A stretch of 64,000 nt of DNA from the NCBI GenBank assembly GCA_951406725.2, contig OX597827.1:55428001-55492000 (forward strand). The letters run 5' to 3'. The position numbers and the translations under genes were made by a program. Below, piece by piece: positions 1-62,815 of this stretch (positions within the stretch are counted from its first letter, which is position 1; every line of letters starts with the position of its first letter). Source of the stretch: Octopus vulgaris. Taxonomy: Eukaryota. The notes under the pieces are model-generated. The model saw nothing but the letters and a program-made list of their open reading frames with translations. It ran no database searches and had not been told where the DNA came from.

Positions 1-3
1 ACG

Positions 4-372
4 TTTCCGTCGATGATTTCCGTAAAAAAACTTTTATTTTTTTACATATGGGCTTGCGGGAACATTTGAAGTAATGAGAGCGAAAGAGACTAAGAGAAAG
101 CGATTTTATGCTCTCTCTTTCACACATTACTCTGTCTCTTCACACACACTAACAGAAGCACTTCACTTACACAACATACTGTCTGTCTCCCACACCCCAT
201 CAAACACACACACACACACATGTACATCAATGCTTTCCATGCACGGTAACTTCAAAAGAACTTCCCTCGTCATACAATCGCTTTCTCTTAGTGTCTTTCG
301 CTCTCATTACTTCAAAAGTTCCCGCAAGCCCATATGTAAAAAAAGAAGTTTTTTACGGAAATCGACGGAAAG
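4..372. mobile_element. Non-autonomous DNA transposon/MITE with ~100-bp terminal inverted repeats; left end probably clipped by the window edge
   Basis: 4-105 (tttccgtcgat...catatgggcttgcgggaac...agagaaagcgatt) is the reverse complement of 276-372; the CA-rich interior is non-coding. Confidence 0.75.
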
Positions 373-462
373 GTCTACTAGAGACGAAAGATTGCCCTGC
401 TGTCATATATCCATAGTGATGATTGCCCTGCCGCCCTCCTTTAATATTATTATTAAGAAGAA

Positions 463-845
463 GAAGGCGTGCTAGCAGAGTCGTTAGCACACCGGGCGAA
501 ATGCTTAGCTGTATTTCGTCTGCCGTTACGTTCTGAGTTCAAATTCCGCCGAGGTCGACTTTGCCTTTCATCCTTTCGGAGTCGATAAATTAATTACCAG
601 TTATGCACTAGGGTCGATGTAATCGACTGTACCCATCCCCCAAATTTCAGGCATCGTGCCTATTGTAGAAAGGATTATTATTATTAATAAGGCGGCGAGC
701 TTAGCGACATTTCATCCGTCTTTATGTTCTGAGTTCAAATTCCGCCGAGGTTGACTTTGCCTTTCATCCTTCCTAGGTCGATAAAATAAATACCGCATGT
801 AATCGACTATTCCTCCCATTGCTGGCCTTGTGCCAAAATTTAAAA
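463..845 (+). mobile_element. Two adjacent tRNA-derived SINE copies with Nin-type central domain
   Basis: aaggcg..agc.gcagaatcgttagc head, gagttcaaattcc B-box and gcctttcatcctt..ggtcgataaa..taccag core; copies at 463-686 and 689-845. Confidence 0.75.
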
Positions 846-2898
846 TCATTATTATTATTAGTAATAATAATATACACACATATACACAAACATATAAAAT
901 ACATGTGTGTGTGTGTGCAGATAGACATTAAATTATCGAGTAGACAGACGTTTGACAAGCCAGATAATTTATGAAACCTATAGAGTAAATATATCAACTG
1001 TATCTTCAACAGAAAATTAGGAGAAAAAATGTGAGCATATTATATTCTGTAAAGTTGCGCACGAGAAACAATACGGAAAAGGAAAACTACAATCAGTCAG
1101 TGAAAACATTGATTGAAAACCTTGCTGAAGATTACGCTTAACGTGAAATTGCATGCCAATACTGTTTTTTTTTTTTTTCATCGACGCAAAATCACTTTCG
1201 TATTAAAAATCGATCGTTAGTTGATCGATCGTTCTGAAAAGCATAAGGGTTTGGTCGTAAATACTAAAAACAAGCACACATCCTGAAAAGTGAACTTTCA
1301 TTACTATTCAGTCACTGCAAAACCGTGCTAGTGTGTTTGTTTCTCTAACCAAATCTTTATCGGATTTTGGTATTCGATATTTGGGCGAGATGCTTTATAG
1401 ATTTCTCAGCACCTCCTTATTAACTTGCCGTCTCTTGTCCTTCTATAAATGCCGGTTTGCCGGTCTTATATTACACATGTTCTTAAAATCAAGTCAGAGA
1501 TGGATAAAAATATCTACAATAGGTCAGCATTATGTTCAGTGGAGATTAGTGTCTCATACTAGAAAAATTGTTATCGAACTCTCCTTGTGCATTACTTAAT
1601 GTTCGCGAAAAACAGTCTTTTTTATTCCAAGTATCAAAATAGCGCTGCTAAATAAATTAATAAAGAAATTGACAAAATCTTATCAAGCTAGTGAAAATAA
1701 TATTTAATGATCTTCATTTCTATTTCATGCTTGTTTCATATTCTGTCATCATTCGATTTGAATTCTAGTTTTCATTTTGTGAGTCTAAAAATGCAGTGTT
1801 TGTGTGTAAAAACAAATGCATTCATTGTGTGTACTCGTGTTCATTATGTAATAGCTTTAGCATTTCTCTTAGGAAGTATTCATTAAAATATAGCATACAC
1901 ATTAATTTCTTCTGACGGGACGCAAGAGTCTTTGTAAGAATGATATGGTTGAACAATTCAGCTGCAGTTGGATATTTATTTCAGGATTTTAACTGGGAAA
2001 TGTTAATGTAGCTAAATATATAGTATGAAAATAGTTCGTCTGGTTATTTAATTAATCATTTGCGCCACTTCACTTAATCTAATAATAATTGTCCTTGTTG
2101 CATGGCAAATAGTACTGAAGTGACTGACTGGAGACTAGGGGGTTATCCAGACAGTCTGGACTGTTGCTATGTAGGAGTGTAGTAGAAGTTACGGCAGGTT
2201 TCATTCATTTTGCAACCTGATTTTTATATATAAGATCAAAAGCTTGTTCGTTCATTTCATATTTCCGTGGGCCAGACAGAATAGTATTTCTATTAAGAAT
2301 TGTGTCGTGTACTGAAGCATTGTGGTGTTGACATGTTTGTATGTAGGTGGGCAAAGTTGTCAGTCAAAATTCCAGTAAATTGCAGCTGCAGTTTATATGA
2401 AATCAGAGATAGACAGTTACACCAGCAATTTTCCGGTATCCATGGTTCCAGACTTGTGCCGGGAAATCGGTGGTGTATCTGTATAAGCATAGATCACTAC
2501 GTGTGAGAGGGTCGGAATACCTCATGTTGAATAGAACTCGTTGATACTTATCGGCTGTTTCATGCTCCGACAGCAGAAATGAAGTGATCAACAATGGTTT
2601 TCGTCTGTGTTGCGAAGGCAGTCAGTCAGTAGCAAGATAGAACTGGTACTCTCGGAGTTTGTGGCAGAGCCAGAATATCAAACTTGCTAAATTCTGAATT
2701 GAATGTTTCGTACGTATGTAGTGATATTCCCGGTCCTATGCGCAGCTTTTAGAAACTTGAACATAGAGGGTTTGAGAATATTTATATATACTGCTTATAT
2801 GGTAAGCTCACCTCATGCAAAATATGAGATTTTTAAAAGCTATCTCAAATAGATGATCGAAGTCCTCTATTTCATCCAATATGCCCAACGCGTATCTT

Positions 2899-2985
2899 AA
2901 TAAGCCTTACTCTGTTATAAAAACTAAAATAAGCCTTACTCTGTTATAAAAACTAAAATAAGCCTTATTCTGTTATAAAAACTAA
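2899..2985. repeat. 29-bp tandem repeat x3
   Basis: aataagccttactctgttataaaaactaa at 2899, 2928 and 2957, with one mismatch in the third copy. Confidence 0.9.
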
Positions 2986-3118
2986 GTGGTAAATGTGTTT
3001 GTGACCGCCCCCGCTGCTTTTGAAATTTCATGTTATACGTAGGCTCAACAGCGAAAGCATTTTTAGAACCAAATATCAAACTATTAAAAGAAAAATATTC
3101 ACATCCATGACACGTATT

Positions 3119-3516
3119 CTCTTTCTACTCTAGGCACAAGGCCCGAAATTTTGGGGAAGGGGAGGCAATCGATTAGGACCCCAGTACGCAACTGGTACTT
3201 ATTTTATCGACCCCGAAAGGATGAAGGACAAAGTCAACCTCGGCGGAATTTGAACTCAGAACGTAACGGCAGACGAAATACCTATTTCTTTACTACCCAC
3301 AAAGGGCTAAACACAGAGAGGACAAACAAGGACAGACAAACGGATTAAGTCGATTACATCGACCCCAGTGCGTAACTGGTACTTAATTTATCGACCCCGA
3401 AAGGATGAAAGGCAAAGTCGACCTCGGTGGAATTTGAACTCAGAACGTAACGGCAGACGAAATATCCGCTAAGCATATCGCCCGGCGTGCTAACGTTTCT
3501 GCCAGCTCGCCGCCTT
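3119..3516 (-). mobile_element. Young dimeric Nin-domain SINE with 16-bp TSD
   Basis: TSD atccatgacacgtatt at 3103-3118 and 3517-3532; two tandem copies of the SINE core on the minus strand. Confidence 0.85.
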
Positions 3517-4154
3517 ATCCATGACACGTATTGGTATTAAATCAAGAAACCAACATATATAAACATTCTCCGTTAAATATATGGCTGTGTATGTATGTGT
3601 ACACACACATATCTTTTACATATTTCAGTCTTGCACTGCGGCCATGCTGGAACACAGCCTTGAAGGGTTTAGTCGAACACATTTCAAAGCCTGGTACTTA
3701 TTCTGTCGGTTACTTTTTGTCGAACCGTTAAGTTACGGGAATGTCAACAAATCAACACTGGCTATAATAGAAGACGCTTGCCCAAGATATTCCTGTTTCG
3801 CCTACTGGCTCCTTCAACCATTAGTTGAACAAACCAATATGCATAACTTGAAGTCCCAGATCCTCGCAATAAATTTAACTCAACTCTCATTTAAGAATCA
3901 CACCGTAAGTTCAGTTGCTGATCTTAAAAGCGTTTTTAAATAACTATTTTAACATATTTGCGACACGTGCATGCATACATACATACGTACGTACGTGCGT
4001 GCGTGCTCAAAATGTTAAGAGGTTCGTCTTCATCATAGCTTTGGCTCGAACCGAGCCTTGTAAATGACAGTGAATACAGGTAAAAATTGTGCGGAACCTA
4101 CCAGATGGATTGCACATGCAATTGAAGCGTCCAGCTTTATCATACACTGTGTCA

Positions 4155-4538
4155 GTGGAGGTGCAATGGCCCAGTGGTTAGGGCAGCGGACTCGCGGTCA
4201 TAGGATCGCGGTTTCGATTCCCAGACCGGGCGTTGTGAGTGTTTATTGAGCGAAAACACCTAAAGCTCCACGAGGCTCCGGCAGGGGATGGTGGTGATCC
4301 CTGCTGTACTCTTTCACCACAACTTTCTCTCACTCTTACTTCCTGTTTCTGTTGTACCTGTATTTCAAAGGGCCGGCCTTGTCACTCTCTGTGTCACGCT
4401 GAAAATCCCCGAGAACTACGTTAAGGGTACACGTGTCTGTGGAGTGCTCAGCCACTTACACGTTAATTTCACGAGCAGGCTGTTCCGTTGATTCGGATCA
4501 ACCGGAACCCTCGCCGTCGTAACCGACGGAGTGCTTCC
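4155..4538 (+). mobile_element. Full-length tRNA-derived SINE with 11-bp TSD
   Basis: A-box tggcccagtgg, B-box ggtttcgattccc; TSD acactgtgtca at 4144-4154 and 4539-4549; CpGs intact. Confidence 0.85.
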
Positions 4539-4775
4539 ACACTGTGTCAAGCTGGTTCTGCTTAAAGATTACATTGAGTTACACGTGTCTGTGGAATAAT
4601 ACTCAGTCACTTTGAATCTAATTCAGTGAGCACGTAGTTAAACGACGGAGATCCTTTTTAACATTTCACACAACACTGTCTCGGTCCTCAGTTTCTTAAC
4701 CCGACGTAGCATCGTGAATGTGACAGCTAGTGATTGGAAAGATGTACCAGCACTTGGTTGGAACTCATTTTCAGC

Positions 4776-4807
<32 letters not shown>

Positions 4808-6644
4808 ACCGCAGAAATCGTTTAATATTCGGTTTGGGTTGCCTTGAATGTGGAGGGATACAATGAAGAATTCCAAAACCTTAAGCGAGGTTAATTTGCC
4901 ACTGCCTATTTTGGTATTTATTTTCCCCCCCATTTTAAAAAAAAATGTCTTTATATAGTCTGTTATTACACCTTATAAATATCGGTGACCTTACAAAACT
5001 TATTTTGCCGTATCACAAGACTCATTTATTATGTAGAAGAATGGAATATAACCGACAGCAATGTTACTGGCACTTATACCATTAGCCATAGTGAAGATTT
5101 GAACTCAGAAAGTAAAGCATGAAACAACCTCCTTATGTAATACATCTTTAGTCCTCATATCCTAATACGTATTATTTCATGGGCCGATTATTGATACCGA
5201 TGCGTTTTTGTCAAAATTAGAAGTTATGGGGATGACATTAAACTGCATCCAGTAATGGGATCCTGGTTCGGGAGTTGCAGGGTTTTGAGGCGTGTGGAGC
5301 CACCTATAAGCCACAATTGTTCACGGGTCTATTCTGACCCAGAGTAGTAGCACCTGCCAGAGTCCTGGCTGTGGGTTAAATATAACACGTAAACTACCAG
5401 GTGGTTGTTATCTATTTCGGCAAATGAACTTATTGTGGTCAATGGCGAATATTATTTACATTACTAAGTGGGTGAACAGGCTACAAACTGTCATCAGTCG
5501 GGATCAACCATTTCATTTAACGAACTACGGCTTGCATGTATAGTCGTGTCATGTTTCTGCTAGCGAAAGACCAGTGTGTCTAAAACCCAAGTTAGATAGG
5601 CAGACATTCATATGCCTCATGGCTCGATCGAGACATTTGGCATGGAAGAGTTAACATTGGTCCGGGCAAGTTGCTCGACCTGGATGGATGAGACACATAT
5701 TTGGACTAGGTCGCAAAGCTAACCTTTGTAAGAGAGATAGGGAGAGAGTTGGTCGTTTAATTTACTCTAGTATATTATTAGTGTATGTGCTTGTTTTCTT
5801 GATCCTTGACTTAGCAGGATTTGAACTGAAGTACGGGACTTCACTGTTTCAACTACACTTACCGCCGCCCTCCAACGTTAAGTCTTGGAGGTGTGATGTC
5901 TAACATTATCACAAGGCCAGAGATGGTAGAGAAGGATTGCTTAAAGTCGCTTCAATCGATTCTCAGTAAAACTATTTATTTGCTTCAGGGGAATTAAAAG
6001 CCAGTCATGTCCTGAATGATTTGAATTCAGAACGTAATGGGTCGAAATTAAATACTACAAGGTATTTTAGCCGAGCGCTCGGCCATGTCTACCCTTTTGA
6101 CTCGTCCATGTGAAGATCAGAAATGCATATTAAAAATATCTTATTTGATGAAAACAATCTATTGTCTTAATATATTTTTTTTTTTCACCATTGGGGCGAT
6201 TGCACCAATGTTTTTTTTCGGCATAATGTTTTCTCAAACAGATACAGTCCCGAGAGAGAGGCGCGGGTAATAAGCTAGCAAGACGGTCATGGTTTTCTCA
6301 AGGGCATTAGCGATGTAATTAAAGTGGAAAGCTGGACACGAACTTGTTTCTACTATGCAATCGTGATTAGTACTAAACAGTTTATTTTCCTTTGTTTTTC
6401 ACTGTTCTGTACACGAAAAAATATAAACTCCACACTTCTATTTATGAACGTAAAGATTATCATCTGTTATAAATCTATTTGAAATCTTTCTTTTAAGCGG
6501 CCAATCAGCTGAGAGATCGATATTGTGTTTAACGCATACACAGTAGAGACACAAACATAAACACACGTATATTTAATATACGTCTGCGTGTGTGTATGTT
6601 TGTATGTATGTACATATATATATATATTTGTTTATTTATTCAAC

Positions 6645-6875
6645 ATGGCTGACGATAAACGAAAAAGCTATCCGTTGATGTTTAAAAACAGTGTCCTTAA
6701 AATGCTTCGTGAAAACAATGGAAACGTAGCTAAAACTGCTAGGGAATGTGGTGTACATAGGAAAAATATTCGGCGCTGGAAGTCTCAAGAAGCTTTGATT
6801 TCGGACACGGTTCAAAATCGTAAGATGAATGCCGGATTTCGACGAAGGATACGGGATCGAAATTTAGTTCTTCTG
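6645..6875 (+). CDS. Brinker-type (BrkDBD, pogo/POGK-like) helix-turn-helix DNA-binding domain ORF/exon
   Basis: caacATGG start; MADDKRKSYPLMFKNSVLKMLRENNGNVAKTARECGVHRKNIRRWKSQEALI matches the BrkDBD pattern RxY..FK..VL.....N...TAR..GV.R..I..W; basic NLS-like RRRIR; donor-like CTG|GTATAT at 6875/6876. The frame stays open to a stop at 7007. No DDE domain follows. Confidence 0.6.
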
Positions 6876-7237
6876 GTATATATTTTCTTTCTTTCCTTTT
6901 TAAACATTCATCTTTACTTCCAGACAAAAAGAAAAATCTACATATATAGAGAGAGTAACAATGATTATTATTGTTACTATAATGATGATGACACGAGTAA
7001 TTTATAATGGAATATAATAATTTCTTTATAATTAACCGGTAAGGTAGGTGCGTGTACTTATAAACCACGGCGTTTTTCATATTACGAACGTCAAAAGTAA
7101 ACATTAATAGACTCATGTGCTTATCTGATACATGTGTTTGTGTATGTTGTCTTCTTAGTTTACATGTACTTTCGTTTTAACAACACACCCACTCAATTTA
7201 AAAATTTATATAATTTATATATATATTAATTTTAAAA

Positions 7238-7279
<42 letters not shown>

Positions 7280-7993
7280 GAGGGGTCTGCGAAGGTCATG
7301 GGGCAAAACAGCAACTTCCTCCAGACCAAACTAGAAAAATAAACAAATAAATTAAAAGAAAAGCTGATTAAAAAAATATGACTAATTTGATTTCTCAATT
7401 TTATTTAGTAACAAAACCGAATATGTTTTATCGATTAAAATTACAGAGTATTTATAGTGTAGCAATAATACGAATTATCTAAAAATTTGTCCTTATCGGA
7501 AAATCGAAAAGTAAACACAGCTTATCAGACCTTTATTTGTTTTTTTTTTCTTTTTTCATTGATTTCCACGACTACCCTCATTTCGTCTGCTTTTGAGTCC
7601 ACATCGGTTCGCTTAGTTAAACATGAACACTGGGTGATTAAATAATGGTGATAAACGTTTGTATTTGCGGGCAAACAATTTTGACCGGGTTTATAAACTT
7701 TTTTTTTTCTGGTTTTTCCTTTCATTTAGTTAATATATTTAAATGGAAGTACGGATATCTTTGTAATGAAGAAAGCTGCTTTGTATTTTAAATGTAATTT
7801 ATGTTTGTGTGGATATATTTATGTATATATAACATATACACGTGCGAATTCACGTACAGTGTGTTTATGTGCATACGTTCCTGATGGAAGTATTTGTATA
7901 TATGTACAAATGTAAAGATTTCATATAGCCAACCTTGTACTGGGACGGCTATAGTCGGCAGTGGTTGCGTGTCCATATGAGAGGCATGTGCTT

Positions 7994-8038
<45 letters not shown>

Positions 8039-11000
8039 CACATAGTGTTTCGATGGTATATGAAATAAACACTGGATTCCGATGCCTTGTTGTAAAGCAG
8101 TTTCGGAGCTAATGCTCTTAAAAACATGTACATGTTCTCTTCCTATATAAAACCGCTTACATTTTCTGTCGGTAGTCAAAATTATTTTAAAGCAGATATC
8201 CGATCCAATTATGAACATTATTGAATGGATTTTTCTGAATAACAACAAACTCTTTGGAACTTAGATATGTTTTCTCCAAGTACTGCCTTCCTTCACGAGG
8301 ACAGTGGAGTCATCTTTACATGTAGCATGCTAAATCCAGCCAGTGAGGAAGGCCCTATGCAGTCGCCCAAACTGCTAGAAATAGCAACCATATCGCCCCC
8401 AAATCACACCGTAACACACACAAAAAAAAAAGGAATAATATGATCCTGTGTGCACTCTGTCTGAAAACTATGTTGGATAATTACGGCTGGAATGATTTTA
8501 ATTATAAATCTTACCTGCTTCATCAGGGCTGATTTGAAGCTAAACATTTGCTAATCAGACTGTGCTATTATAGATTTATTAGATTTAGCATGTCTTGGTT
8601 CCCGACTGAATGACTCTTACCCAAGATTTGTTAGGGCATCGAAAACTTTTTTTATACTTGCACTAAACAATGATAACACCAACAATTCCTGTAACAGGGA
8701 TTTGCATAGATCTATTACTAGAAATACATGAAACTTCAGACGCAGGTTTCTTCTCCCAGTCAAAACCATCCCTATACACGCGCGCTCGTGTATATATCCC
8801 TAACAACACCGCTGCTTTAAAAATACGCACACACAAGTTTGGTAGAACAAGCAGGAGAAATAGAACTCAATACTTGAAAATATGTACATTTTAATTATCA
8901 TTAAACTACAAGACTTTGAGTCACTTTTGTAACTTTCTGCTAGTTAAAAATAAGAGTATATATAAAAAAGAAAGTGCGCGCGTGATGCTGTTGTTCGTCG
9001 AGTGCACAAGGCTCAAAAGGCCCTCTGCATTCTTCCATGTCACCTGGTATATAAGAAATTGGCTAAAATACTTAGGTACTTGCTTAAGCAAGCACACGAG
9101 TATATTTTTTAACCTGGGTTACAGGTGGCACTATTTGAGTTCAGAACGCACAGAGGCAGAAACAGCTGTCCCAAAGCGTCTTGTCTGCTGTATTCATGAC
9201 CTTAGACTGGTACTTTTATTTATTAACTCTGAAAGCATGAAAAGCAAAGTTGACCATAGCAGGATTTGAAAGCTGGAATAAATGCTCTAAAGTTTCTTAG
9301 CCAATGCAGAATTGACTCTACTAATTTGATTCCAGTTTCACACATGAGCGCCTGTATGTTTGTAAATATATGTATATGGTGTGTCTGTGTGTTTATATAT
9401 AGGTATCTGTATGTATGTAGGTGTGTGTATAATATATGTATACATGAAAGATGAAACATGAAAATTTCAGCTTTTAATAGAAAAAAATTTTGACCACTCT
9501 ACTTTCACTATCGAATAACTCTATTTGTGTTTACATTCAAGTATTTACAGACACACATGTGCCTGTCCACATACACACACACACACGTTTCATTTATTTG
9601 TGCTTATAATTTCTTTACAGAATCATGTTTTTAAGCACAGTCACACTGTGCATCACTTTCAGGCGTCAAGTGCCTTGTCATGCCACTTTATGTTGATTAA
9701 AACCACCTCTTGAATGAAATCTAATGGATAGAAATTGTACTGAAGTTCATTGTCTGTGTGTTTGTCTGTCTGAATTTATGTCCTGTAACTTATGTTTCAA
9801 TAAATAGAGATAAAAATAAGTATTGGAATTCATAATATTGACTAAATCCTTGAAGTGGTGGTCAAGCCTGGCGACAATCCAATGACTGAAGCCAGTGAAT
9901 GTGTGTGTGTGTGAGTGTTCACACACCATATATAACACAGACCAAATCATTAAAATAGAATTTTTTTAAATGCAGAATGGCAGGCTCTAATTTGGGGAAT
10001 TTTATAAGTTATAAACAGGTCATAGTAAAAAGGAAAAAAGTTGCAAGATGTATGAGTGTGTATGTTTTTCATTATACTTTTCAAAAAGGACAACTAAACA
10101 ACTAACTATACTTAATATTAGTATAAAGTAACCCTTTGATAGACCACAGCTACTGGTTGCTGTGTAATGATTATTTACATGTAACTGTTCTAACCATAAA
10201 TGCTATTTACAGTGAGTCAATCCTTTTGCAGTCTTGAGTTGTTGAAAGCACTTAGTCTGACTACTACATATCACTATTTTAACTAAATCCTTTTGTCAAT
10301 ATGAAGTAACAGAGAATGAACCCAGCCTTAATTCATATGAGTTTGCTGCAGAGAAAATTTGGGGTTCTGCCAGCATGAGAGAAATTTGGTGCCATGCCAA
10401 ATCCTATTTGGCATTATTTTAGCATATTTATTGATTTATGTTAATATTGGATATCTCTTCAGAATATTGATTTCTTACATTGGCACAAGGCCAGAAATTT
10501 GCAGGGGAACTGTGTAGTCTAGTGAACCAATCCCTGTACATGACTCATGCTTATTTTCTCAACCTTGTAGAGGTGAAAGGCAGAAATTGTTTCCCCAGGA
10601 ATTTGAACTCAAAACATAAGAAATAACCACTAAACTGTGTAATGCATTTAGTCCAGTTTTCTGTGCCTCAATATCCACAACTCATCGTTTTCTGCTCTGT
10701 CACATCTTTATACATATATATATATATATATTTATATAGTTTTATAATATTATCATCAACAAACGAAAATAAATATGAGTATACCATTTCATTGTAGGTT
10801 CTTACTCTCTTCATAAATACAAGAGAATGAAAAAGAGGGAAGGGATGTGTTGGTGAAGTATTTGATTTAGATTACTTTTATTTTGTTTTGTTTCTCAACA
10901 CAAAATCTGTTATAGGTTTTTGCTTGAAATTTGATACAGAAGGAAAAACTTTTCTATACAGAAATATCTATATGCCTATGTGTGAGTGTGCATGTTTGTA

Positions 11001-11339
11001 TTTAGGTGCAGTATGGTTGAATGGTCAAGAAGTTTGTTTTGCAACCACTACGTGGCATCTCAAGCAGTTGTTATTTCCTATAGCTTTGGGTTGACCAATT
11101 ATATCTTATGAATGAAAATGGAGAGATGGAAACTGAAAAGAAAGTCATCCAATGAATCGTACCTGTAATTCAAAGGTACAATCTTGTCAACTGTGTCACT
11201 TTGATTCTGTCTGAGAATTACATTAAGGGTACACTTGTCTGTGGAGTGCTGAACCACTTACTGATTCTTTGAGCAGAAAATCCACTTGATTGAATGACTG
11301 AATTCTCAGCATTGAAATCAATAGAGATCCATCCATCTT

Positions 11340-11660
11340 TTACTTGTTACAGTCATTAGACTGTGGCCATACTGGGGCACCACCTTTAGTTGAATGAATC
11401 GACCCCAGTACTTTTTATTGTTTTTAATTTTGGTACCGAACCACTAAGTTGTTATGGGGGTGTAAACACACCAACACCGATTGGCAAGTTGTGTAGTAGA
11501 GGACAGACACACACATATACATACACACACACCATATTCACTCACAAGGTTTGGGTTGGCCCAAGGGTATTGTAGAAAATACTTGCTCAAAATGCCATGC
11601 AGTGGGACTGAACCAGAACCATGTGGTTGGGAAGCAAGCTTCTTACCGCATAGCTGCACC
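11340..11660 (-). mobile_element. CORE-like tRNA-derived SINE (OR2-like family)
   Basis: Reverse complement of the gcatggctgtgtggtaagaagcttgcttcccaaccacatgg...gggcaagt...ggtgtgtttac family also seen at 12085 and 39212. Confidence 0.7.
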
Positions 11661-12084
11661 TGGCTTAAATAGAAAGTCGATGACTACCCGTAAAACATGA
11701 ACTCCCATCTCCTGCAGTCATGACAGGAATTCTCACAATATACAATATATATATATATATATACATACATTTACAGAAATATCTTAAGAATTGATTTGTG
11801 GTTTCCTATTGCTTTTATGATAAAGAAATAGCCTATTGTGTTTAGAGTTGGTTCTGTGAATTCTCTTTTACTCTTTTTCTAACAAAAGCTCCAGTCAATT
11901 CTCTTCCTTTAACTGCAATTAGGTTTCATGGGGTATACCAGCATCCTACCTTTCCAAATGTACACTTATTGTACACTTTCTACATTCTTAATTAAACTAT
12001 CTGCTCAAAACTACCTCCGCTTCTATGATACAAACTTCATGTTTAAAATGATCTAAATTAAAGCCTTTCAAAATTATGGTTGGG

Positions 12085-12350
12085 TAGGCATGGCTGTGTG
12101 GCACCTTGGGCAAGTGTTGTCCTACTATAGTCTCGGGTCGACCAAAGTTTTGTGAGTGGATTTGGTAGACAGAAACTGAAAGAAGCCTGTCATATATATA
12201 TATATATATATGTGTATATGTATATATTTATGTGTGTGTCTTAGTGTTTGTCTCTCTCCCCATTGCTTGGCAACTGATGTTGGTGTGTTTACGTCCCTGT
12301 AACTTAGCTGTTTGGCATAAGAAACTGATAGAGTAAGTACCAGGCTTACT
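12085..12350 (+). mobile_element. CORE-like SINE (OR2-like), internally deleted
   Basis: gcaccttgggcaagtg...ttgtgagtggatttggtagacagaaactgaaagaagcc...ggtgtgtttacgtccc. Confidence 0.7.
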
Positions 12351-12539
12351 TTGGACTTATTCAAGTCCAAAGTATTGAATAACCTTATTTTCATTGCTTT
12401 TCTTTGTGTGTTCAGATGAAGGACCTGTAAGCTGAACCTTTTTGTGTTACATATTTTCTGCCAACTCTAAGATTTAAACACTTCAGTATGCATGTATAAT
12501 GTTACCTCACTGGCAAACACAATCTATCAAGAAATCAAT

Positions 12540-13507
12540 GACAACTATGGTTCTCTCGCTCAGGATGAAAGGTAGACTGTATGATGCATATGTGCAAACT
12601 ACCATGATACACGGCAGTGAAACATGGGCCATGACTGCTGAGGATGTGTTGGCTTGAAATAAATGAAGCTAGTATGATCCACCAGATGTGTAATGTCAGT
12701 GTGCATACACGACAGTGTGTGAGTGCCCTGAGAGAAAAGTTGGACATAAGAAGCATCAAATCTGGTGTGCAAGAGAGACAACTGCACTGGTATGGTCGTG
12801 TGTTACATATGAATGAGGATAGCTGTGTGAGGAAGTGCCACACACTAACTGTGGAAGAGGCAGACCCAGAAAGACATGGGATGAAGTGGTGAAGCATGAC
12901 CTTTGAACATTGGGCCTCACAGAGGCAATGACAGGAGACTGAGACCTTTGGAGATATGCTGTGATTGAGAAAACCTGGCAACTAAAGTGAAATCTCAGAC
13001 ATGGCCAATGTCAGTGTTGCATGTCTGGCCCATTTAAAAGTACCCTTGATGCATTGGGCAATATGATATGCTTGAGAAGATCTATTGAGTCAAGTAAAAC
13101 CAAATTCGTAACTGTGTTCAGTGCCTCCTGACTGGCTCCCATGCCAGTGGCACATAAAAAGCACCAGCCAAACGTGGTTGATGTCAGGTCTGTCTGACTG
13201 GCTCTCGTGCCAGTGGCACGTAAAAAGCACCATCTGTACATGGTCAGTGTCGGTGGCACGTAAAAAGCACTATCCAGATGGGATCAATGCTAGGGCCACT
13301 GACTGGCTCCTGTGCCAGTGGCATGTAAAAAGCACCCACTACACTCTCAGAGTGGTTGGCTTTAGGAAGGGCATCCAACTGTAGAAATATTATCAGATCA
13401 GATTGGAACCTGGTGCAGCTGCTGGCTCTCCAGTCCTCAGTCAAACCGTCCAACCCATGCCAGCATGGAAAACAGGCATTTAAACAATGATGAAGATGAT
13501 GATGATA
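12540..13507 (+). mobile_element. 5'-truncated RTE-clade LINE remnant (ORF C-terminus, 3'UTR and (GAT)n tail)
   Basis: Frameshifted HGSETWA..LE.NEASM..MCNVSVH..LREKLDIR..GVQERQLHWYG; 3'UTR gtggcacgtaaaaagcacc modules; gatgatgat tail. Confidence 0.8.
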
Positions 13508-13914
13508 TCCAGCCAAAATATTCTGCTTGTTTTATGCTAAAACTGGCCAGATCCAACCTCTCACAACTACCCTACAATGTCAATCTAAAGACAAACAATC
13601 ACATAAGTAAAATTTCATAGCTATGAAATAATGCAGATGTTCAATAACATGAGTAAAATCTCATTGCCATGAGATAATGCAGATATTCCAATGCTGATAA
13701 TGCAGGATTAATTCAAAACAATGTGAATAAATAAGCATTACACTCCACAGAGAAATCTGAATGCTGAGAGGTCAAATTACTTGCTGTCAGAAAAAGGAAA
13801 GGTCACATTAGATAATGTAGTCTGAGATATGCAATGCCATGAGAGTAGGCTGGGCTGCTCGTGGTTGAAAGGATTTTGGTAATAGGCCTTCTTGGTTAAG
13901 GCTAAACAATACAC

Positions 13915-14044
13915 CAGGCATGGGCAACCTTTCTCAAGAAGTGGGTCACATTAAGCACTCTGTACTACTAAAAATTATTGAAAGTAATTTTTTGTTAGGC
14001 ATGCCATTAAGAGAGTCCCATGGACTGCAGTTTGCCCATAACTG
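13915..14044. mobile_element. hAT-like MITE
   Basis: TIRs caggcatgggcaa / tttgcccataactg; 8-bp TSD caatacac / caataaac. Confidence 0.65.
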
Positions 14045-14179
14045 CAATAAACTTTTGACACTTTGGTTGGTTTACCAATACTGTCCAGGCACAGTTCGAA
14101 ATAACAGTAAAACTATTCTAAAAGATCGTTTGAATAAAGATTCAGTATTTGTGAAGATGTGGAATGGTTGGATGGATTG

Positions 14180-14404
14180 AGTGGCGGCAGAAACGTTAGC
14201 ACGCTGGGCGAAATGCGCAGCCGTATTTCATCTGTCATTATGTTCCGAGTTCAAATTCCGCCGAGGTTGACTTTGCCTTTCATCCTTTCAGGGTTGATAA
14301 ATAAAGTACCAGTTACGCACTGGGGTCGATATAATTGACTTAATACCTTTGTCTGTCCTTGTTTGTCCCCTCTATGTTTAGCCCCTTGTGGGTAGTAAAG
14401 AAAT
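14180..14404 (+). mobile_element. Nin-domain SINE
   Basis: Same head and core as 463-686 and 3119-3516. Confidence 0.75.
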
Positions 14405-15134
14405 ATATACTGACTTACTGAGTAGCATATTGACTCATATTATTTTAAGCCCCATTAGTCGGCATATTAGTCTATGTGCTACAATTAATCAAACTGAAGT
14501 TAAAAAAAAAAAAGAAATTACAATTGCCAATTAGACTATCCAACTTCTGCAATTTATGCAAAAATAACCAAATTTCCGTTAATACAACTACTGATGCTAA
14601 ATATATATATATAACACCAGCTCAAAAATTTACTCGTCCTGTCGAAAAGACGCTTGTCTGTGACGTCCTGTTTTTGTTGTATTATTATTATCATTATTGT
14701 TTTTACGTATTTTTGTATTCTTATTCGTGCTATCTTTATTGTTTTTACGTATTTTTGTATTTTTACTTGTGTAACATCGTCCGTTTTTCCGTCCTTTTGT
14801 ATACATTCGAGGCTTTCTTCCAAGGAATCTAATGCGCTTGGCTTAGATTTTCCTTTGGGGCTGGCCAGATCGGAGCAATCTCAAGATTAATCAGCCGAAA
14901 TTGCGCAGATGATCTGGTTCTTGAAGGCTTTGAATGTCCCGTCCGTGTTTTTTGTATCGTCTTCTAAATGTTTCACGTTCTTGTCCCAGTTTGTATTTTT
15001 TTACATTTACATATATATATATATATAAGGAATAAATATATAAAAAAAAATATGTTTCTAGATGGTTCTGAAATAATTATCAGATGTCTTCTTGTATCAT
15101 AAATATCTAAATTAACCATCGCTTCTCTTTTCAG

Positions 15135-15263
15135 CCTGGCGCTTCAAGATTAGAGACTGACAGTTTGGGGCCTGTGCCAGTCCCAAATGACAAACTCTAT
15201 GGAGCTGTCACGGCACGCACTTTGATCAATTTCAACATTGGTGGCGAAACTGAAAAAATGCCG
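15135..15263 (+). CDS. FH: FH exon (homologous to vertebrate exon 2)
   Basis: ttttcag|CCT...CCG|gtatgt; [43 protein letters not shown]; 129 nt, phase 0/0. Confidence 0.93.
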
Positions 15264-18200
15264 GTATGTAGAATTCTAGTATTCAGTCTTTCTTTAATGC
15301 AATGCTTTAAGATGCATGGGAAAACAAAATCCTAGGGTATCCTTACTTGGTAAGATGTCACACAATAAAGAAGCCTTTATTTCTGTAAATTCTTTCATTA
15401 TCAGTCTGTCTGATTTGAAGTGATGTGTATGGATCTAGACAGTTGCATACAGAAGTGCCAATCACTTAACGTAGATGGAACTTGTAGAAGAGAGAAACCC
15501 AAGAAGACATGGTACAAAGTATTGAAGGCCAATCTCAAGACACTGAGTCTTACAAAGGAGATGACAAAGGGCCAAGGTATCTGGTGGGTACCTTGCTATA
15601 CTCAAGAAGATCTACCCACCATAGCAGAATTGATACCAATGCTGGTGTCACGTTAAAGCACTGGTGCTGGTGCCACATAAAAAGTAACCAGTACACTCTG
15701 TAAAGTGGTTGATGGTAGAACAAACAGTGGTGCCTGGTGTGGTCCATGGCCTTACCAGCTCCTGTTAAACCATCCAACTCATGCCAGCATGAAAAACAAG
15801 TTAAATGAGGATTTAAATTTAAATGAAAAAGGTCATTTTTGTGACATGAATGGTGAAAGATTTCAAAAAGTGTCTATTTGTGTGTGTGTTCTTTAGTTTT
15901 AGATATCATGGTCAAGGTCAAGCTGGAGCATCATTGTGTAGTGTGCATGTATATATTTTTGAGTAGTATTCCAAATACTACTCAAGGTGCATGAAGGCAC
16001 GTGGCCTAGTGGTTAGGGCATTCGGCTCACGATTGTAAGGTTGGGAGCTCACTTCCCGGCGACACGCTGTGTCCTTGAGCAAGACACTTTATTTCACATT
16101 GCTCCAGTCCTCTCAGCTGGCAAAAATAAGTTGTACCTGTATTTCAAAGGGCCAGCCTTGTCCAGACTCTGTGTCACACTGAATCTCCCTAAGAACTATG
16201 TTAGGGGTACACGTGTCTGTGGATTGCTCAATCAATTGCACATTAATTTCACGAGCAGGCTGTTCCGTTGATCGTATCAGCTGGGACCCTCATTATCGTA
16301 ACCGATTGAGTGCTCCTATTCCAAATAATCAATTGTCAATACACGAAGAAAGTTAAGTATTTTTTTTTCTTGTGAAATCCTTGCCTGGTTATTTTGTAAA
16401 TTGAGACGCATAAACATTCTATTCTTATTAGAAATATAACTATGAAAAGGTATAATATTTTAGTCAGTTGAATTTTACTTTAAATATAAACTTTAAAAGA
16501 AAATTACTTGGTTTTTTGTTTTAATCTTTTGGAATTTTTTTTTTTTTTTGCTTGGTATAAAATGTAATAGAAGAAATAAGGCATTTTATTTTTTTAATTA
16601 ACTGTGCACTTCTTTTCATATAATTTAGTTGTTGTTCTGAGAACTAACAAAAGGATTAAGAATAAATCCAGGAACAAGCAGTTGGAAAAATGAAAGAATG
16701 AGAAATGAAATAGATACAACAATCTGTTATAGGGGCACCTGTAAACACTTTATATTCTGCAGCAAATTAGCCCACCACATCCTATCCTTTCCCTAGAAAT
16801 TGAATTCAATGTACAGCTACTGAAATGCTCTTCGATTTTGTAGCACTCTTGTTGTGTACAGCAGTGAGTTGTTCCTGACCTTCAGTATCTGTTTACAACT
16901 AGGTAGGCTGCAATACTTGAGAGTTTACTCTTATAGTCATTGAAGTCAGTGACAGGGAACAAGCCATCAACCTTCTGGATACTGACTATTAAACCATATT
17001 GAATTGATTATCAGCATTTTTCTCTCACAATTCTAGTGTATAACTCTTTTGCCCACCTATCTTATCCATTTCTATTCTAGATAGTACAAAAATGAGTGAA
17101 TTCAATGGTGTAACATAATCAAAAAATAAGGTAATTCAGTGTGAAGAAATCCAAGAAATAGGTACTCCAAATCAATGTTGGATCCAATCGCTTCAGCCAC
17201 ATAACGACACATGTGCTTTTCTTGGACTATTCTTTTCCTTCTCTCCGGACCCTTCCTCTTTCTAATGAAGAGCCATGTTCAAAATGTCATCTTCAACCTC
17301 TTTTATTTTTTCCATCTTAAACTGACTATTTACCTAATACATTCATTGATTTTTATTGCTTTTGTTTTTATTATTTTGTCTATTCTAGAAGTCTATTCTG
17401 AAGCAATGTTAATGAATAAAATAAGGTTATATTAATAAAGAACCAAGGAGGTGGAGAGTGGTAATAAGTGATGAACTTATTGCTTTCCCAAAGTGAAATG
17501 AAATGGCTTTTCAATAAGAAAATATAAGAAAAGAAATCTTGAAATAAAACTTGGTTTGTATTTGATTTGTCTGGAGAGTAATGACAATAATAATGCTGAT
17601 TTAAAAAAAAGAATTTTCTATGTTAGTAGTAAGCGTCAAAAACAGATTGTATGACAGTCATTCCTTTCTCAATATTGTTAATAACATCATTGAAGAAAAC
17701 AGATGCAACCAGAAAACTAAACCAAATAGAAAAGTTGTTTAGTTTCAAGTCAGTCTTGATTGAGCTGTTTTATGATCATCCTACCAAGAGTACCATGAAA
17801 TCTTTTCCAAGTAGTGTCATACAAGACAACATTATATGATGTGTTCTTCCCCTATTGAGAAAGTAGGAGTTAATTTAAGGAAGATTTAGCTGTTATTTCT
17901 AGCAGGTTGACTGACTGCCTAGACATACCATCATTGACTCTATGTAGCAAAATAATAATTAATAAAAGTTGGCAAATGATTGGCACTCGAGGGCTCATAG
18001 CAGCAATGTTAGTAACAAAGGCAATTTTTATTCATTATTCCTTGCTACATCAACAGAACTACTAGTAGCAGTTGTAGTAAAAGTAACAGCATAATTAGTT
18101 TTCCTGGCATAACATCATCAGATACTATGTTGATTAAGTACCTTATTTAAAACAGCAAAGAATAATTGATCATGAATTTTTATAAAGTCACTGTATGATA

Positions 18201-21200
18201 AGAGATTACTATACTGGGTTTCTCATATTGTTTAGATGTGTTGAAAAGGCATGTGCCTTTCACATGACACTGTATTGATCCCACAAGTCTTTGGTTGATC
18301 GCCCTCTCTATGTTCCTGATTTTACTCCTATCTTCTGTTCCCCACATGTGAAAACACTTGGCTGGGAATCAGTATCAGTGATGATATCATATCTGCTGTT
18401 GACTTTTTTGAGCAACAGGATGAAAGCTTCTTCACCAATGGGATCCAAGCACTGCAGCATAGTCCCACAAGGGGGACTATATTGAAAAATAAACCTCATT
18501 TGGTCACATTCTATGAGAATATTATGGTCAGCCTATGAATTTTTCAACTGACTCTTGTATATACAGTCCACTTTGGTTTGGTGATCACTAAATTACACAA
18601 ACAGATATGACCATATCTATTATGTCTCACATCCATAGAAAGCTTGAGACATCTATTATGTTTCACATCAATAGGAAGCTTGAAATCTTAGCTTTCAGTA
18701 CCTGACAAGATACTATGAGGGTGCGGGGAATATGACTGACTGGCTAAAACCTTTGACAGAGATCCTGAACTAAAATAATTTCTTACAACATTGAACTGTA
18801 TCTACTCATGGCCTACACACTATTTACAACATGGTCTCAGCCAGTGAATGTTAAAGTAATTGACTTTCTGCAGCTTCCTTATGGGTTGGTCAGTTAACAG
18901 TTCTCTTAAATGACCAATTCTGCATAAGTTAAATAAAAATTTATAGCTAAAGTAATAGTAACATTTGTTATGTGCAGCAGAAGCAGTACTAGATTAAATT
19001 AGTAATTTGTGCATCATGCTTAATGCAAATAGATCATGGAAAGCTTAATTAACTGCAATTTTTGTCTGGAGGTAATATCTGTTTTGGACGTACTGTGTTA
19101 AAAAAACACAAAATTATATTGGTAGCAGATGAAAATTGTCCACCAGTGATGACAAGAATGCTATGTGCTTCTAGTATTTCCATTGTCACTACTCAACAAT
19201 TTTCTTCTGCTACCAATTTAACTTTGTGTTATTCAATTTAATTTTGTGCTATTCAAATCGATCGACATCAATGGAAATTGTAGCTGTGATACCAGTGCCG
19301 GTGGCACGTAAGCGAACCATCCGAACATGGCCGTTGCCAGCGCCACCCCGACTGGCCTCCGTGCTGGTGGCACGTAAAAAGCACCATCCGATCGTGGCCG
19401 TTTGCCAGCCTCATCTGGCTCCCGTGCTAGTGGCACATAAAAAGCACCATCCGATCGTGGCCGTTTGCCAGCCTCGTCTGGCACCTGTGCAGGTGGCACG
19501 TAAAAAGCACCCACTACACTCACGGAGTGGTTGGCGTTAGGAAGGGCATCCAACTGTAGAAACACTGCCAGATCAGACTAGGCCTGGTGCAGCCTTCTGG
19601 CTTCCCAGACCCCAGTTGAACCGTCCAACCCATGCTAGCATGGAAAACAGATGTTAAACGATGATGATGATGAATACAGCAAGTCCATAAGAGATATTAT
19701 CTGTAGTATCTCCAACTGAACACTGTAGTTAATTCAGCCTTTTGTGATGTATTTATATAAAGTATGATACACAGATTGCTAATAGTAGTATATATTTTAT
19801 GAAAAATAAAGAGAGCAACAGAAGCAATATTAATACCAAAAGATAAAATATTCACCACTTAAAAGTAGATGTTGTGTTAGGACAAACAAATACTGCAATA
19901 TTTACCAAGAGAGAAAAACCTTCATGTGGGTTTTTTTTTTTTTTTTTTGTGTGCATAAAAGCATATAGCTATTGCCAGTGGCAGACAATCACTGCTACTT
20001 CTGCTTCCAGGACTACCAGATCACGTGATTTCAGCTTTTTTTTTGGGTGGGGGGTCAGTGGCAGATACTTTGGCACCGGAAATAACAGTAACTGCTATGC
20101 TAACAATATACATAGAGATCACGTGACCAACCAGGCTATCAGATGTTGCTACACATTGCTGGTCACAATGCACTTTGCTTTGTTTTAGCCTTCAAATCAG
20201 GCCACCCCGCTGGCTAAGCGAGTAGGCCAACAGAAGAAAGAGTGAGAGAAAGTTGTGGTGAAAGAGTACAGCAGGGATCACCACCACTCCCTGCCAGAGC
20301 CTTGTGGAGCTTTAGGTGTTTTCGCTCAATAAACACTCACAACACCTGGTCTGGGAATCGAAACTGCAATCCTACAACCGTGAGTCTGCTGCCCTAACCA
20401 CTGGGCCATTGCACCTCCACGATATACATAGAAATACAGAGCCAAATATATTTTATATTTCTTTTTCTTATTTTGTAATGTCAAAGTATTATTTTCTAAA
20501 ATGATTATATCTTATCCATATTATTATGAGAAACGTTTAATGATTGATTTTATACTTGCAGGTTCCACTTATCAAAGCTTTTGGTATTCTGAAGGCTGCA
20601 GCAGCCCAAGTGAATCAAGAGTATGGCCTGGATCCCAAAATAGCTGAAGTAATAAAATCTGCTGCCATGGAAGTATGTTAGCTTTGTTGTATTTGGTCAT
20701 TAGGACATAGTTTATTTACCTAGTGATGACACCATGTAACCAATTTGAAAATAGTGCAAACGATATAATTCTTGAATAGAATCAAGAATTTTCTATTCTC
20801 AAATTGAGAGTTGTGAAAATGCATGGCCTAGTGGTTGAGGTGTTGCACTCACGATTGCTAGATCATGGTTTTGATTCCCCGACTGGGTAGTGCATTGTAT
20901 TCTTGAGCAAGACACTTCATTTCATGTCGCTCTGCGATCACTTTAACATTTGATAATGTGGCATACTATACACTTGTACTAGGCAATGTTGATTTGATGA
21001 CAGAAGTGAGCTAATGTACAACACAAACATTTGATCAACAGAAACAAATCGCCTGTGGAACAAATTGTTCAGCAAGAAATTGCAAAGCCCTAATCTGTCA
21101 TCTGTGACAGGTGAGTCTACCACAATTGAAAATAACAGTTAAAAGTGTTTGTTTTTTTTTTAAGTTTTGATATTTCTCTGAATGGTTAAATGGGCATGAA

Positions 21201-22714: not shown

Positions 22715-23552
22715 GGCCATTTCTTTTTAGTTAATACTATGTTTGATTTTCTTTTTCTTTATTTCTGTTCAGGTGAGTTCTGGTGAACTTATGGATCATT
22801 TCCCTCTTGTCGTGTGGCAGACAGGTTCTGGCACACAGACAAATATGAATGTGAATGAAGTGATTAGCAACCGAGCTATTCAGTTACTTGGTGGTCAGCT
22901 TGGCAGTAAGGATCCTGTGCATCCAAATGATCATGTAAATATGAGCCAAGTAAGTGTGATTTATCTTATCAAGATAGATATATTTTTTTATTTTTTTGTG
23001 AAATGGGGTGAAGCTATTGTTTGTCTTTTACTGGTACCTATTGACTTTCCAGAAGAACAAGAAATACGATATCCTCACATTATTTTTCCATGCAGAAATA
23101 TAAATGAATAAACAGGATGATTTAAAGCATTGACACCTTTTTCAGATACAAATTAAAATAAACTCAAAGGAAGTTAAAAGTAAACTTGAATCAAATTTAA
23201 ACATCTTGAAATAAATTAATCTTGCAGTAAATTAACCCTTCAGTATTTAAACTGGCCATATCTGGCCCAAAATTTTCTACATGTTTTTTGTTAAAAGTGG
23301 CCAGATCTGACTCCCCACAATACCTAACAATGTCATTATAAAAATATAGTCACATCATTGAAATCTCAAAGCTGCAAGATAATGCATTATTAATTTTTTT
23401 TTTAATGTGAATTAATAAGCATTACATTTGACAGAATAATCTGAATGCTAAAGGGTCAAATCTTTTTTTTTCTAATTAGATGATGGCATCCAACCTTATT
23501 TCCAATGCTTTTATAAAATGAATAATAAATAAACAGTACACAGACAAACACA

Positions 23553-36010: not shown

Positions 36011-36195
36011 AATAAAACAAATGAATTTGATAGTTGACATCTTTTACCAATTTATTTATTTATAAATTCCTTAGCTATAATGGATACTGTTAATTCAATT
36101 TTTGATATTTTGAAATAAACATATGTAGAATATGTACTTGAAATAATGAAATATTTTGTTCATCATAGCAAAGTAGGGGATGTTCATAAAATAAA
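36011..36195 (+). terminator. Candidate FH polyadenylation signals
   Basis: AATAAA at 36011, ~36113 and ~36190; the AT-rich context makes chance hits likely. Confidence 0.35.
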
Positions 36196-58007: not shown

Positions 58008-58851
58008 CTGAAAAAGAAATAGAAAGACTTATTATTTCACACTTGATGTTCTTGTTGTTTAACCTGAAGTCAACACTGATTGAGCCAACATGTGATTAAC
58101 CCTTTAGCGTTCAAATGTAATGTTTGTTTATTCACGTTGTTTTGAATTTATCTTGCATTATCTTGTAGCCTTGAGATTTTGAATATATGATTATATTTTT
58201 TAGACTAACACTGTGGGGTAGGTGTGAGAGGCTGGATCTGGCTAGTTTGAACTTGAATAGGAAGAATATTTTGGCTGGACATGGCTGGTCAAAAGCATTT
58301 CAGCCATGAATTTGTACATTTAATACATTGTCTAATGCACCCATTCTTTTAAAGATGATAGGGTGTGATTCAAGGGAGGCTTGACAGTCATTTCAAGTAA
58401 GTTAAGCAATAAAGTAGAGGGTCCCTTGACAGCTCATTCATCACCTGGTTGATATTGTAGGCAAATTCACTTCCTGAGGAGTGTTATAAGATATGATTTT
58501 TCTTCTGTAGGACATGAAGATAAAATCTCAAAAAGGATTATGTAATTCTTCCGAATGTAATCAAATGGGAGCAAAGCCATGTGGCTTAGTTGTGAGGGGT
58601 ATTCAGCTAACAATTGTATGGTCATGAGTTTGATTCCTTTTGAACAAGACACTTTATTTCATGTTGCTCCAGTCCACTCAGCTGTCAAAAATGAGTTGCA
58701 CCTGTATTTCAAAGGATCTGCCTTGTCACATTCTGTGTCATGGTGAATCTCCCTAAGAACTGTTATGGGCACGCATGCCTGTGGAGTGCTCAGCTGCTTG
58801 CGCATTAATTCCACAAGCAAGCTGTACCATTCATCAGATCATTACCTAAAA

Positions 58852-60790: not shown

Positions 60791-61466
60791 TGACCTGTCC
60801 AAAGCGATTAATAACAGAGAGATATTCTTCTACGTAGATAAAACGAAAATATTCAAAAACTTTTGCGAAAGAAGAGACTGAAGTCAAATACCACGGGACT
60901 TGAATGAGGCTGGGAATACAGTCAGAAATTTGGAGAGCCTTAGGCACAGAAAATAAAGACAAGCTATTGGGATTTGCAGCATTTGGGTGAGGTTTTACTT
61001 GGAGTACACATAAATCATATCTGGTACCTATATAAAGAGGACCTACATCAAAATGATAGAATATGTGCAACGAAGCGAAACAAAACTTGGTTCGATATTA
61101 AGAGAATCTTTCATTTGCAGAACGACTGAGGAAACTGGTTTTACATACACCGTTGCCTATAGAAAATCAAGCGTATACAGTATATAGTTTGAAGAGTATG
61201 AAAGAACCTACGACAAAGAAGCTCGTAAAATGTAAATAAAATACAAAGAGGCAACAAGTGCGACTAAACAAAAGGAAACATTCATTTTGAGAGTTGTGAA
61301 TACTGAGTACGGTCTCCAGTAAAATAAGATAAACTCAAAATCAGTGACGGAGTTTGAAAGTGGGATACAACTTTCATGGTAAAAAGATATCAACCCTAAG
61401 ACAAAAATCACATAACCACCGTGACCACCACCATATAACATTAATTTTTGTTATCTTTATGTTGGT

Positions 61467-62676: not shown

Positions 62677-62815
62677 TAATCATCTTAAATAGTCCTGACC
62701 ACATGCAAGCAAGCAAAACGTATGGATCGTCACATCAGTATAATCACTATCATAGATGTAGATAAATAAGTAGAATATATGCAGATGTTGACAAGATTCG
62801 TTTGTCAACACTCAC

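Follow-up and report, generated by a model that had tools for sequence, protein, structure and literature searches.

A likely transposase-derived helix-turn-helix exon at the fumarate hydratase locus of Octopus and a predicted DNA-binding fumarase

In a stretch of 64,000 nucleotides (nt) from Octopus vulgaris (assembly GCA_951406725.2, contig OX597827.1, positions 55,428,001 to 55,492,000 of the forward strand; hereafter the window), the fumarate hydratase (FH) gene carries a conserved alternative exon that encodes a helix-turn-helix (HTH) and that was likely captured from a Passer/pogo transposase. Splicing very likely joins this exon to the complete enzyme, where it replaces the mitochondrial leader; the product is predicted to be a chromatin-tethered, non-mitochondrial fumarase. 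We consider this combined reading probable, and we hold with high confidence that the fusion transcript itself is real and selected. A preliminary description, made from the letters of the window, had proposed such an HTH-fumarase fusion, and its overall reading is supported by gene models in three Octopus species, by the ends of assembled sequencing contigs and by purifying selection.

Fusion frame, gene models and transcripts

The ATG at 6645 opens 231 nt, i.e., 77 stop-free codons, and a phase-0 GT directly follows position 6875. The acceptor before 15135 consists of a polypyrimidine tract and AG in the same phase, so that both the uninterrupted frame with its donor and the in-frame acceptor stood as first described. 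Joining the HTH exon to eight downstream exons through canonical GT-AG sites gave exactly 541 amino acids (aa), identical letter for letter to protein P0121, and this was the one solution found. The joined frame encodes a complete class II fumarase. Indeed, the enzyme part passes TIGR00979 (fumC_II) with 753.9 bits against 664.75, Lyase_1 and FumaraseC_C were found by Pfam, and T265-H266, K402, N404 and E409, which we take to be the catalytic positions of fumarase, are invariant in 29 aligned sequences. The monomer model of the 541-aa protein folds like human FH (template modelling score 0.93 of the target), with the HTH lying apart from the enzyme fold on a linker modelled at low confidence. 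The features of the locus, all on the + strand, are as follows.

5892–6644, +: 5′ leader and likely second promoter in a CpG-rich zone (contigs of runs X10 and X1; the promoter role is putative)
6645–6875, +: alternative first coding exon, 77 aa, likely a Passer/pogo transposase N-terminus (Pfam, exon rebuilding, database proteins, contig ends)
6660–6794, +: BrkDBD helix-turn-helix, aa 6–50, recognition-helix region HRKNIRRW (Pfam, alignment to 2GLO, model)
6840–6854, +: basic linker RRRIR, probably inherited from the linker between two transposase HTHs (alignment with relatives)
6876–15134, +: GT-AG intron of 8259 nt in phase 0, in which no remnant of Tc5, DDE or terminal inverted repeats was found
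15135–15263, +: FH exon 2; acceptor common to the HTH exon and the mitochondrial first exon, the latter outside the window
20562–20672, +: FH exon 3 (exon rebuilding)
22773–22949, +: FH exon 4 (exon rebuilding)
26112–26267, +: FH exon 5 (exon rebuilding)
28276–28387, +: FH exon 6 (exon rebuilding)
31317–31397, +: FH exon 7 (exon rebuilding)
31932–32135, +: FH exon 8 (exon rebuilding)
35396–35820, +: FH exon 9, coding part including the stop (exon rebuilding); AATAAA at 36011, 36114 and 36190

Three Octopus species have a gene model for the 541-aa protein, the predicted junction peptide NLVLLPGASR included. In O. bimaculoides it is XP_014786186.1 (P0001), which has the 77 HTH residues at its N-terminus and was the only one of 11 candidates to pass when longer proteins carrying the HTH were sought, while a second 541-aa protein, P0121, common to O. 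vulgaris (CAI9733076.1) and O. sinensis (XP_029644594.1), lies in the cluster of the shorter isoform. The 77 aa of the window are identical to aa 1–77 of all these models, and among the best 120 of 310 fumarase matches only P0001 carries the BrkDBD domain. The fusion protein is therefore already in the databases, under the misleading label ‘fumarate hydratase, mitochondrial isoform X1’ in the case of O. bimaculoides. Note that the O. vulgaris annotation drew on Iso-Seq reads in general (PMC10700109). No description of an octopus HTH-fumarase was found in print by a search that excludes most subscription journals; PMC13655608 mentions neither octopus, nor fusion, nor DNA-binding, and fumarase, Brinker and BrkDBD are unmentioned in the text of PMC10027918, the fusion accessions being missing from five supplements.

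The earlier statement that FH has no obvious first exon was not borne out, since a 500-aa isoform with an ordinary mitochondrial first exon is annotated in all three species; its 36-aa leader ends in a Met just before exon 2. A six-frame search of the window for this leader gave no exact match (best score 41). The leader is thus not encoded in the window, which places the mitochondrial first exon upstream of base 1 and makes the HTH exon an alternative, internal first exon. Moreover, the Met at residue 36 of the mitochondrial isoform (P0002/P0122) corresponds to the start of the 465-aa forms in Argonauta and another relative (P0003, P0125), and octopus FH may consequently have three N-termini: leader, bare and HTH. 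The FH models of Argonauta (465 aa) and Sepia (505 aa) are without the HTH, the genomes of both not having been searched; as the Argonauta model is also without the leader, absence of the HTH from Argonauta is not established, and the age of the exon is bounded only from below.

Twenty sequencing runs under five organism labels were listed as containing part of 6400–7400; none is recorded as RNA, and 14 were guessed to be RNA. Four runs (X1, X8, X10 and X14, from four studies and three organism labels; all contigs, presumed RNA) were aligned on 4200–7150. In all four, one contig covers 6645–6875 and its match to the genome ends exactly at 6875, with an overhang beyond this position of 28 nt in X1 and X10, 5 nt in X8 and 1866 nt in X14. 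If the contigs are built from 31-mers, as Logan contigs are, the computed overhang is 28 nt when the HTH exon enters exon 2 together with another exon whose last letters are ATG, and 29 nt when the other path is the end of the intron; the 28-nt overhang found twice would then fit an acceptor common to the HTH exon and the mitochondrial exon. The overhang of X14 corresponds to the 1395 coding nt of FH exons 2–9 plus 471 nt left for the 3′ untranslated region, a length that fits loosely with the poly(A) signals of the window at +191, +294 and +370 after the stop. Splicing from 6875 to 15135 in transcripts is thus strongly supported.

Upstream of the exon, a single X10 contig is collinear over 5892–6565 and 6645–6875, and X1 has a contig over 6212–6576; the contigs give no start site. 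The exon lies, as the preliminary description had it, in a CpG-rich upstream zone, with an observed/expected CpG ratio per kb of 0.70–1.32 in 1–9000 and mostly below 0.5 in 9001–60000 (FH gene body). The X10 contig also has 124 unaligned nt upstream of 5892, adjoining an AG at 5889–5890, which may mean that the sequences diverge there or that an exon lying still farther upstream is spliced on.

Several points weigh against the fusion transcript and its product. The joint between 6875 and 15135 is supported by contig ends and overhang lengths, not by junction letters, and the RNA status of all four runs is a guess. Unlike five of the other seven FH donors, that of the HTH exon has no G at +5. 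In addition, contig depth just inside the intron (bin 6873–6971) is 9.2 in X1 and 8.5 in X14, and unspliced forms may therefore exist. Finally, the 541-aa protein is a predicted one.

Some of these points would suit a stand-alone HTH mini-protein, either unspliced or spliced at 6876–6923, for which the FH fusion would be a minor read-through or an annotation artefact. The 48-nt in-frame GT-AG segment at 6876–6923 and the stop at 7007, both mentioned in the preliminary description, do exist, as does an unspliced frame of 120 aa; the intron depth in X1 and X14, together with a junction known without its letters, leaves room for such a product. However, the main contig exits the genome at 6875 in all four runs, no 6875–6924 joint occurs among the 15 listed of 18 joints, and overhangs of 28 nt and 1866 nt agree with continuation into FH exon 2 and the exons after it; a search for shorter stand-alone homologues (none from one candidate) adds a weak argument in the same direction. 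We consider the mini-protein very improbable.

Origin and conservation of the HTH exon

The exon carries a complete BrkDBD-type HTH, as had been proposed from the letters: the profile check gave PF09607 at aa 6–50 with 29.8 bits (cut-off 23.4), and HTH_Tnp_1 was found on the same exon with 28.3 bits (cut-off 24.1). Brinker from Drosophila (2GLO) was the top match in the PDB both by sequence (E 0.0017, 31% identity) and by fold (E 0.16), and its HRRQIQKW aligns with the octopus HRKNIRRW in the recognition-helix region. The HTH model, built from 33 aligned sequences, reached a predicted local distance difference test (pLDDT) of 94–95 for residues 11–50. It suggests the same fold as Brinker, with a root-mean-square deviation of 1.5 Å to 2GLO over 54 columns. 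In contrast to this likeness, identity to Brinker is only 31%, the E-values are weak, and transposase-like relatives score far higher than Brinker-like proteins. A Brinker orthologue was rejected, since Brinker-like proteins reach at most 26.1 bits against 58.0 and the remainder of the protein is a fumarase. Two other searches gave little: the exon alone retrieved from a language-model atlas (ESM Atlas) only generic bacterial HTH clusters (0.89–0.90), which is uninformative, and the two of 565 stretches that passed in a metagenome scan were both bacterial HTH genes, irrelevant here.

A scan of 1.84 billion representatives yielded 178 matches, the best 150 of which were listed; among these, the closest single-domain relatives have 47–54% identity and several begin at the same Met. 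In 10 of 30 chosen relatives, Pfam places HTH_Tnp_Tc5 directly behind the homologous stretch, and the octopus exon ends at the position where Tc5 would start, its RRRIR being aligned to the basic linker of the relatives. The best per-domain score was 58.0 bits for Tc5-bearing relatives versus 26.1 bits for 28 Brinker-like multi-domain proteins. In one relative (P0214), the homologous stretch runs on into an NMDE motif, and the language-model features of this protein resemble a Tc5/DDE_1/BrkDBD cluster (0.95). Passer-family pogo transposases, like POGK, are built with BrkDBD followed by Tc5 (PMC7386202). The exon is thus likely derived from a Passer/pogo transposase. Against this origin, Pfam DDE_1 was not found in any relative examined, and a domain tree of 79 rows, which omitted matches below 30 bits and hence all Brinker-like ones, did not resolve the placement of the window domain; for these two reasons a transposase origin is likely and not proven, and a host gene with BrkDBD and Tc5 may instead have been the donor.

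The basic stretch RRRIR, which the preliminary description had read as similar to a nuclear localisation signal (NLS), is present, and that reading of it is not supported: neither RRRIR nor the new N-terminus matches the classic monopartite or bipartite NLS patterns, which also counts against a nuclear fusion protein, and of 32 aligned relatives 30 could be scored, 18 of which have a basic cluster at this position. Judged from this alignment, RRRIR appears to be a transposase linker by inheritance and a putative NLS at most.

Little else of a transposon was found in the window. Related proteins (155, Tc5-bearing ones included) gave 217 tblastn matches in the window, none of them outside the exon, which agrees with the earlier remark that no DDE domain follows. 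Around the exon, no pair of terminal inverted repeats (TIRs) exceeded 16 nt in length or had an E-value below 0.17, the matches being short AT-rich chance ones (a first search had returned microsatellites only); the TIRs and TA target duplication of intact Passer/pogo elements were not found at the locus, nor was a second copy of the exon in the window. An intact pogo element was rejected, as BrkDBD is present with no Tc5, DDE_1 or TIR. The preliminary description had also allowed for a recent, internally deleted pogo element not yet decayed, and a transposase-like N-terminus with its own start codon is what such an element would leave. We find this scarcely credible, because the same exon, identical in 77 of 77 residues, occurs in species about 34 million years apart, and because the TIR pair, the second copy and any Tc5/DDE remnant are missing from the window. 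Both alternatives that had been offered first, the mini-protein and the recent relic, are thus disfavoured.

Conservation gives further information on the exon. Between O. bimaculoides and O. vulgaris/O. sinensis, two lineages that split about 34 million years ago (PMC10700109), none of the 77 HTH residues differs, against 6 of 464 in the enzyme. In X10, a single substitution, synonymous, lies in the 231-nt exon, whereas the adjoining 667 nt of upstream flank on the same contig hold 23 substitutions as well as 9 gaps (Fisher P 0.015). Within the X10 exon, 0 nonsynonymous changes stand against 6.2 expected (P 0.002) and 1 synonymous change against 1.7 expected; the one exon change of X14 is also synonymous. 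Since nonsynonymous change is absent and synonymous change is near expectation, these sequences point to purifying selection on the protein encoded by the HTH exon rather than on its DNA. As in host-transposase fusions, orthologous conservation under purifying selection is therefore found, in a small sample. It should be noted on the other side that the contrast between HTH and enzyme in differing residues is not significant (P 0.60), that the selection test concerns one contig and one relative, and that the mitochondrial leader is also identical between species (36/36); the locus as a whole is thus slow, which makes 77/77 weaker as evidence.

The unchanged leader would fit equally with an exon that does no more than provide another promoter and a start without the leader, the basic HTH being a nonspecific nuclear retention tag or simply tolerated, and the conservation reflecting a slow locus or constraint on the DNA. 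Human FH is dual-localised via alternative transcription initiation (title of a paper cited in PMC6068284), and the loss of the second HTH and the lack of a classic NLS pattern are also in keeping with it. However, synonymous change near the flank rate with zero nonsynonymous change points to selection at the protein level, and a leader-free start is already provided by Met36 of the mitochondrial isoform, as in the 465-aa forms of Argonauta and another relative. We therefore judge this explanation unlikely.

Possible function and comparison with known fusions

For the conserved HTH exon spliced onto FH, we propose the following course of events. A Passer element would have inserted into FH intron 1 before the O. 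bimaculoides/O. vulgaris split; its start codon and a GT donor just before the second HTH would have been retained, and the remainder, which is absent from the window, would have decayed. Transcripts from the CpG-rich zone would then splice 6875 to 15135, as the contigs strongly support. The first 30 residues of the HTH N-terminus contain three acidic residues versus one in the 36-aa leader, so that replacement of the leader by an N-terminus with an acidic start should make mitochondrial import unlikely, and the protein may reside in the cytosol or the nucleus. As class II fumarases are tetramers, one enzyme could carry as many as four HTHs. Of the two HTHs of the transposase only the first remains, which speaks against a targeted enzyme in that sequence specificity may be weak; avidity of the tetramer could compensate for the lost second HTH. 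A tethered enzyme could set fumarate and malate levels locally at DNA, by analogy with human FH.

Indeed, the recruitment of human fumarase to breaks follows phosphorylation by DNA-PK, and KDM2B is inhibited by the local fumarate (PMC6068284). The octopus protein would resemble this chromatin fumarase as a leader-free class II enzyme predicted at chromatin; in contrast to human FH, which has no DNA-binding domain and depends on DNA-PK for its recruitment, it has a predicted DNA-binding domain built in and might thus be an inbuilt version of the human arrangement. The most specific proposal, that the tetramer with its four HTHs docks on old Passer sites and that local fumarate inhibits, at particular loci, 2-oxoglutarate-dependent demethylases of histones or DNA, is a tentative one which we regard as doubtful.

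Alternatively, the fusion may be real and selected and act as a transcription factor or transposon repressor, with FH as a tetramer scaffold or a fumarate/malate sensor and local catalysis incidental. Most host-transposase fusions retain the DNA-binding domain and serve to regulate genes (Cosby et al., bioRxiv 10.1101/2020.05.07.082677), and a single retained HTH would need oligomerisation. By contrast, Pfam finds no repression domain in the 541-aa protein; the integrity of the enzyme is uninformative here, as the complete enzyme is common to the mitochondrial isoform. We hold this role to be improbable.

Compared with the host-transposase fusions KRABINER, SETMAR and CSB-PGBD3, the octopus gene is similar in that the DNA-binding domain lies on an exon of its own (6645–6875, its transposase origin judged from relatives) apart from the host domains (FH exons 2–9); that it is spliced onto the host gene, as in those fusions, is strongly though indirectly supported by gene models, contig ends and overhang lengths. 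It is also similar in that fusion and parental isoforms stand side by side, with purifying selection. Among tetrapod fusions, DNA-binding domains prevail and the most frequent partner is KRAB; young fusions coexist with the parent isoform (Cosby et al.). In contrast to these cases, the host part in octopus is a core metabolic enzyme and not KRAB, SET or SCAN, and the host is a mollusc; other enzyme partners may occur among the 55 host domains of Cosby et al. Eight of nine traced tetrapod fusions use an acceptor before the transposase frame (Cosby et al.), whereas the octopus piece is an upstream exon that supplies the start codon and uses a donor, and, unlike the tetrapod fusions, it replaces an organelle-targeting signal. 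The N-terminal BrkDBD is shared with POGK and Passer pogo transposases, and the nearest relatives have BrkDBD and then HTH_Tnp_Tc5; POGK keeps BrkDBD, Tc5 and DDE_1 and gained KRAB, while the octopus exon retains BrkDBD and the linker only (PMC7386202).

Altogether, the octopus gene is best read as a host-transposase fusion whose partner, a Krebs-cycle enzyme, is unusual; it is present in databases and was not found in print. Metabolic enzymes at work in the nucleus usually depend on other proteins for their recruitment, and it is an open question whether a metabolite that diffuses freely can act at single loci. If the proposal is true, a fumarase with its own DNA-binding domain on a removable exon, the mitochondrial isoform being untouched, would allow this question to be tested directly. 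Transposase capture would then reach beyond vertebrate partners of the KRAB/SET type to a mollusc housekeeping enzyme, with an organelle address swapped for a DNA-binding domain. Under the more specific and doubtful proposal of targeting to chosen loci, a transposon would have wired a Krebs-cycle enzyme into locus-specific chromatin control.

Other features of the window

Tail to tail with FH, the − strand carries exons of a SET-domain gene (57723–58028, 49327–49701 and 44129–44446), presumably SMYD5-like; its SET match (E 0.058) is below the cut-off. A repeat at 4200–4550, which we take to be SINE-like, has a very high copy number (contig depth up to about 3e5 in the aligned runs), and a similar copy lies near 16000–16310. 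On the + strand, an open frame at 54413–54769 encodes an acidic stretch and a Cys-rich end; it is possibly a decayed transposase C-terminus and has no Pfam match. Finally, a tandem array at 61425–62689 has a 54-nt unit, an 18-residue repeat when translated, from which long open frames result.

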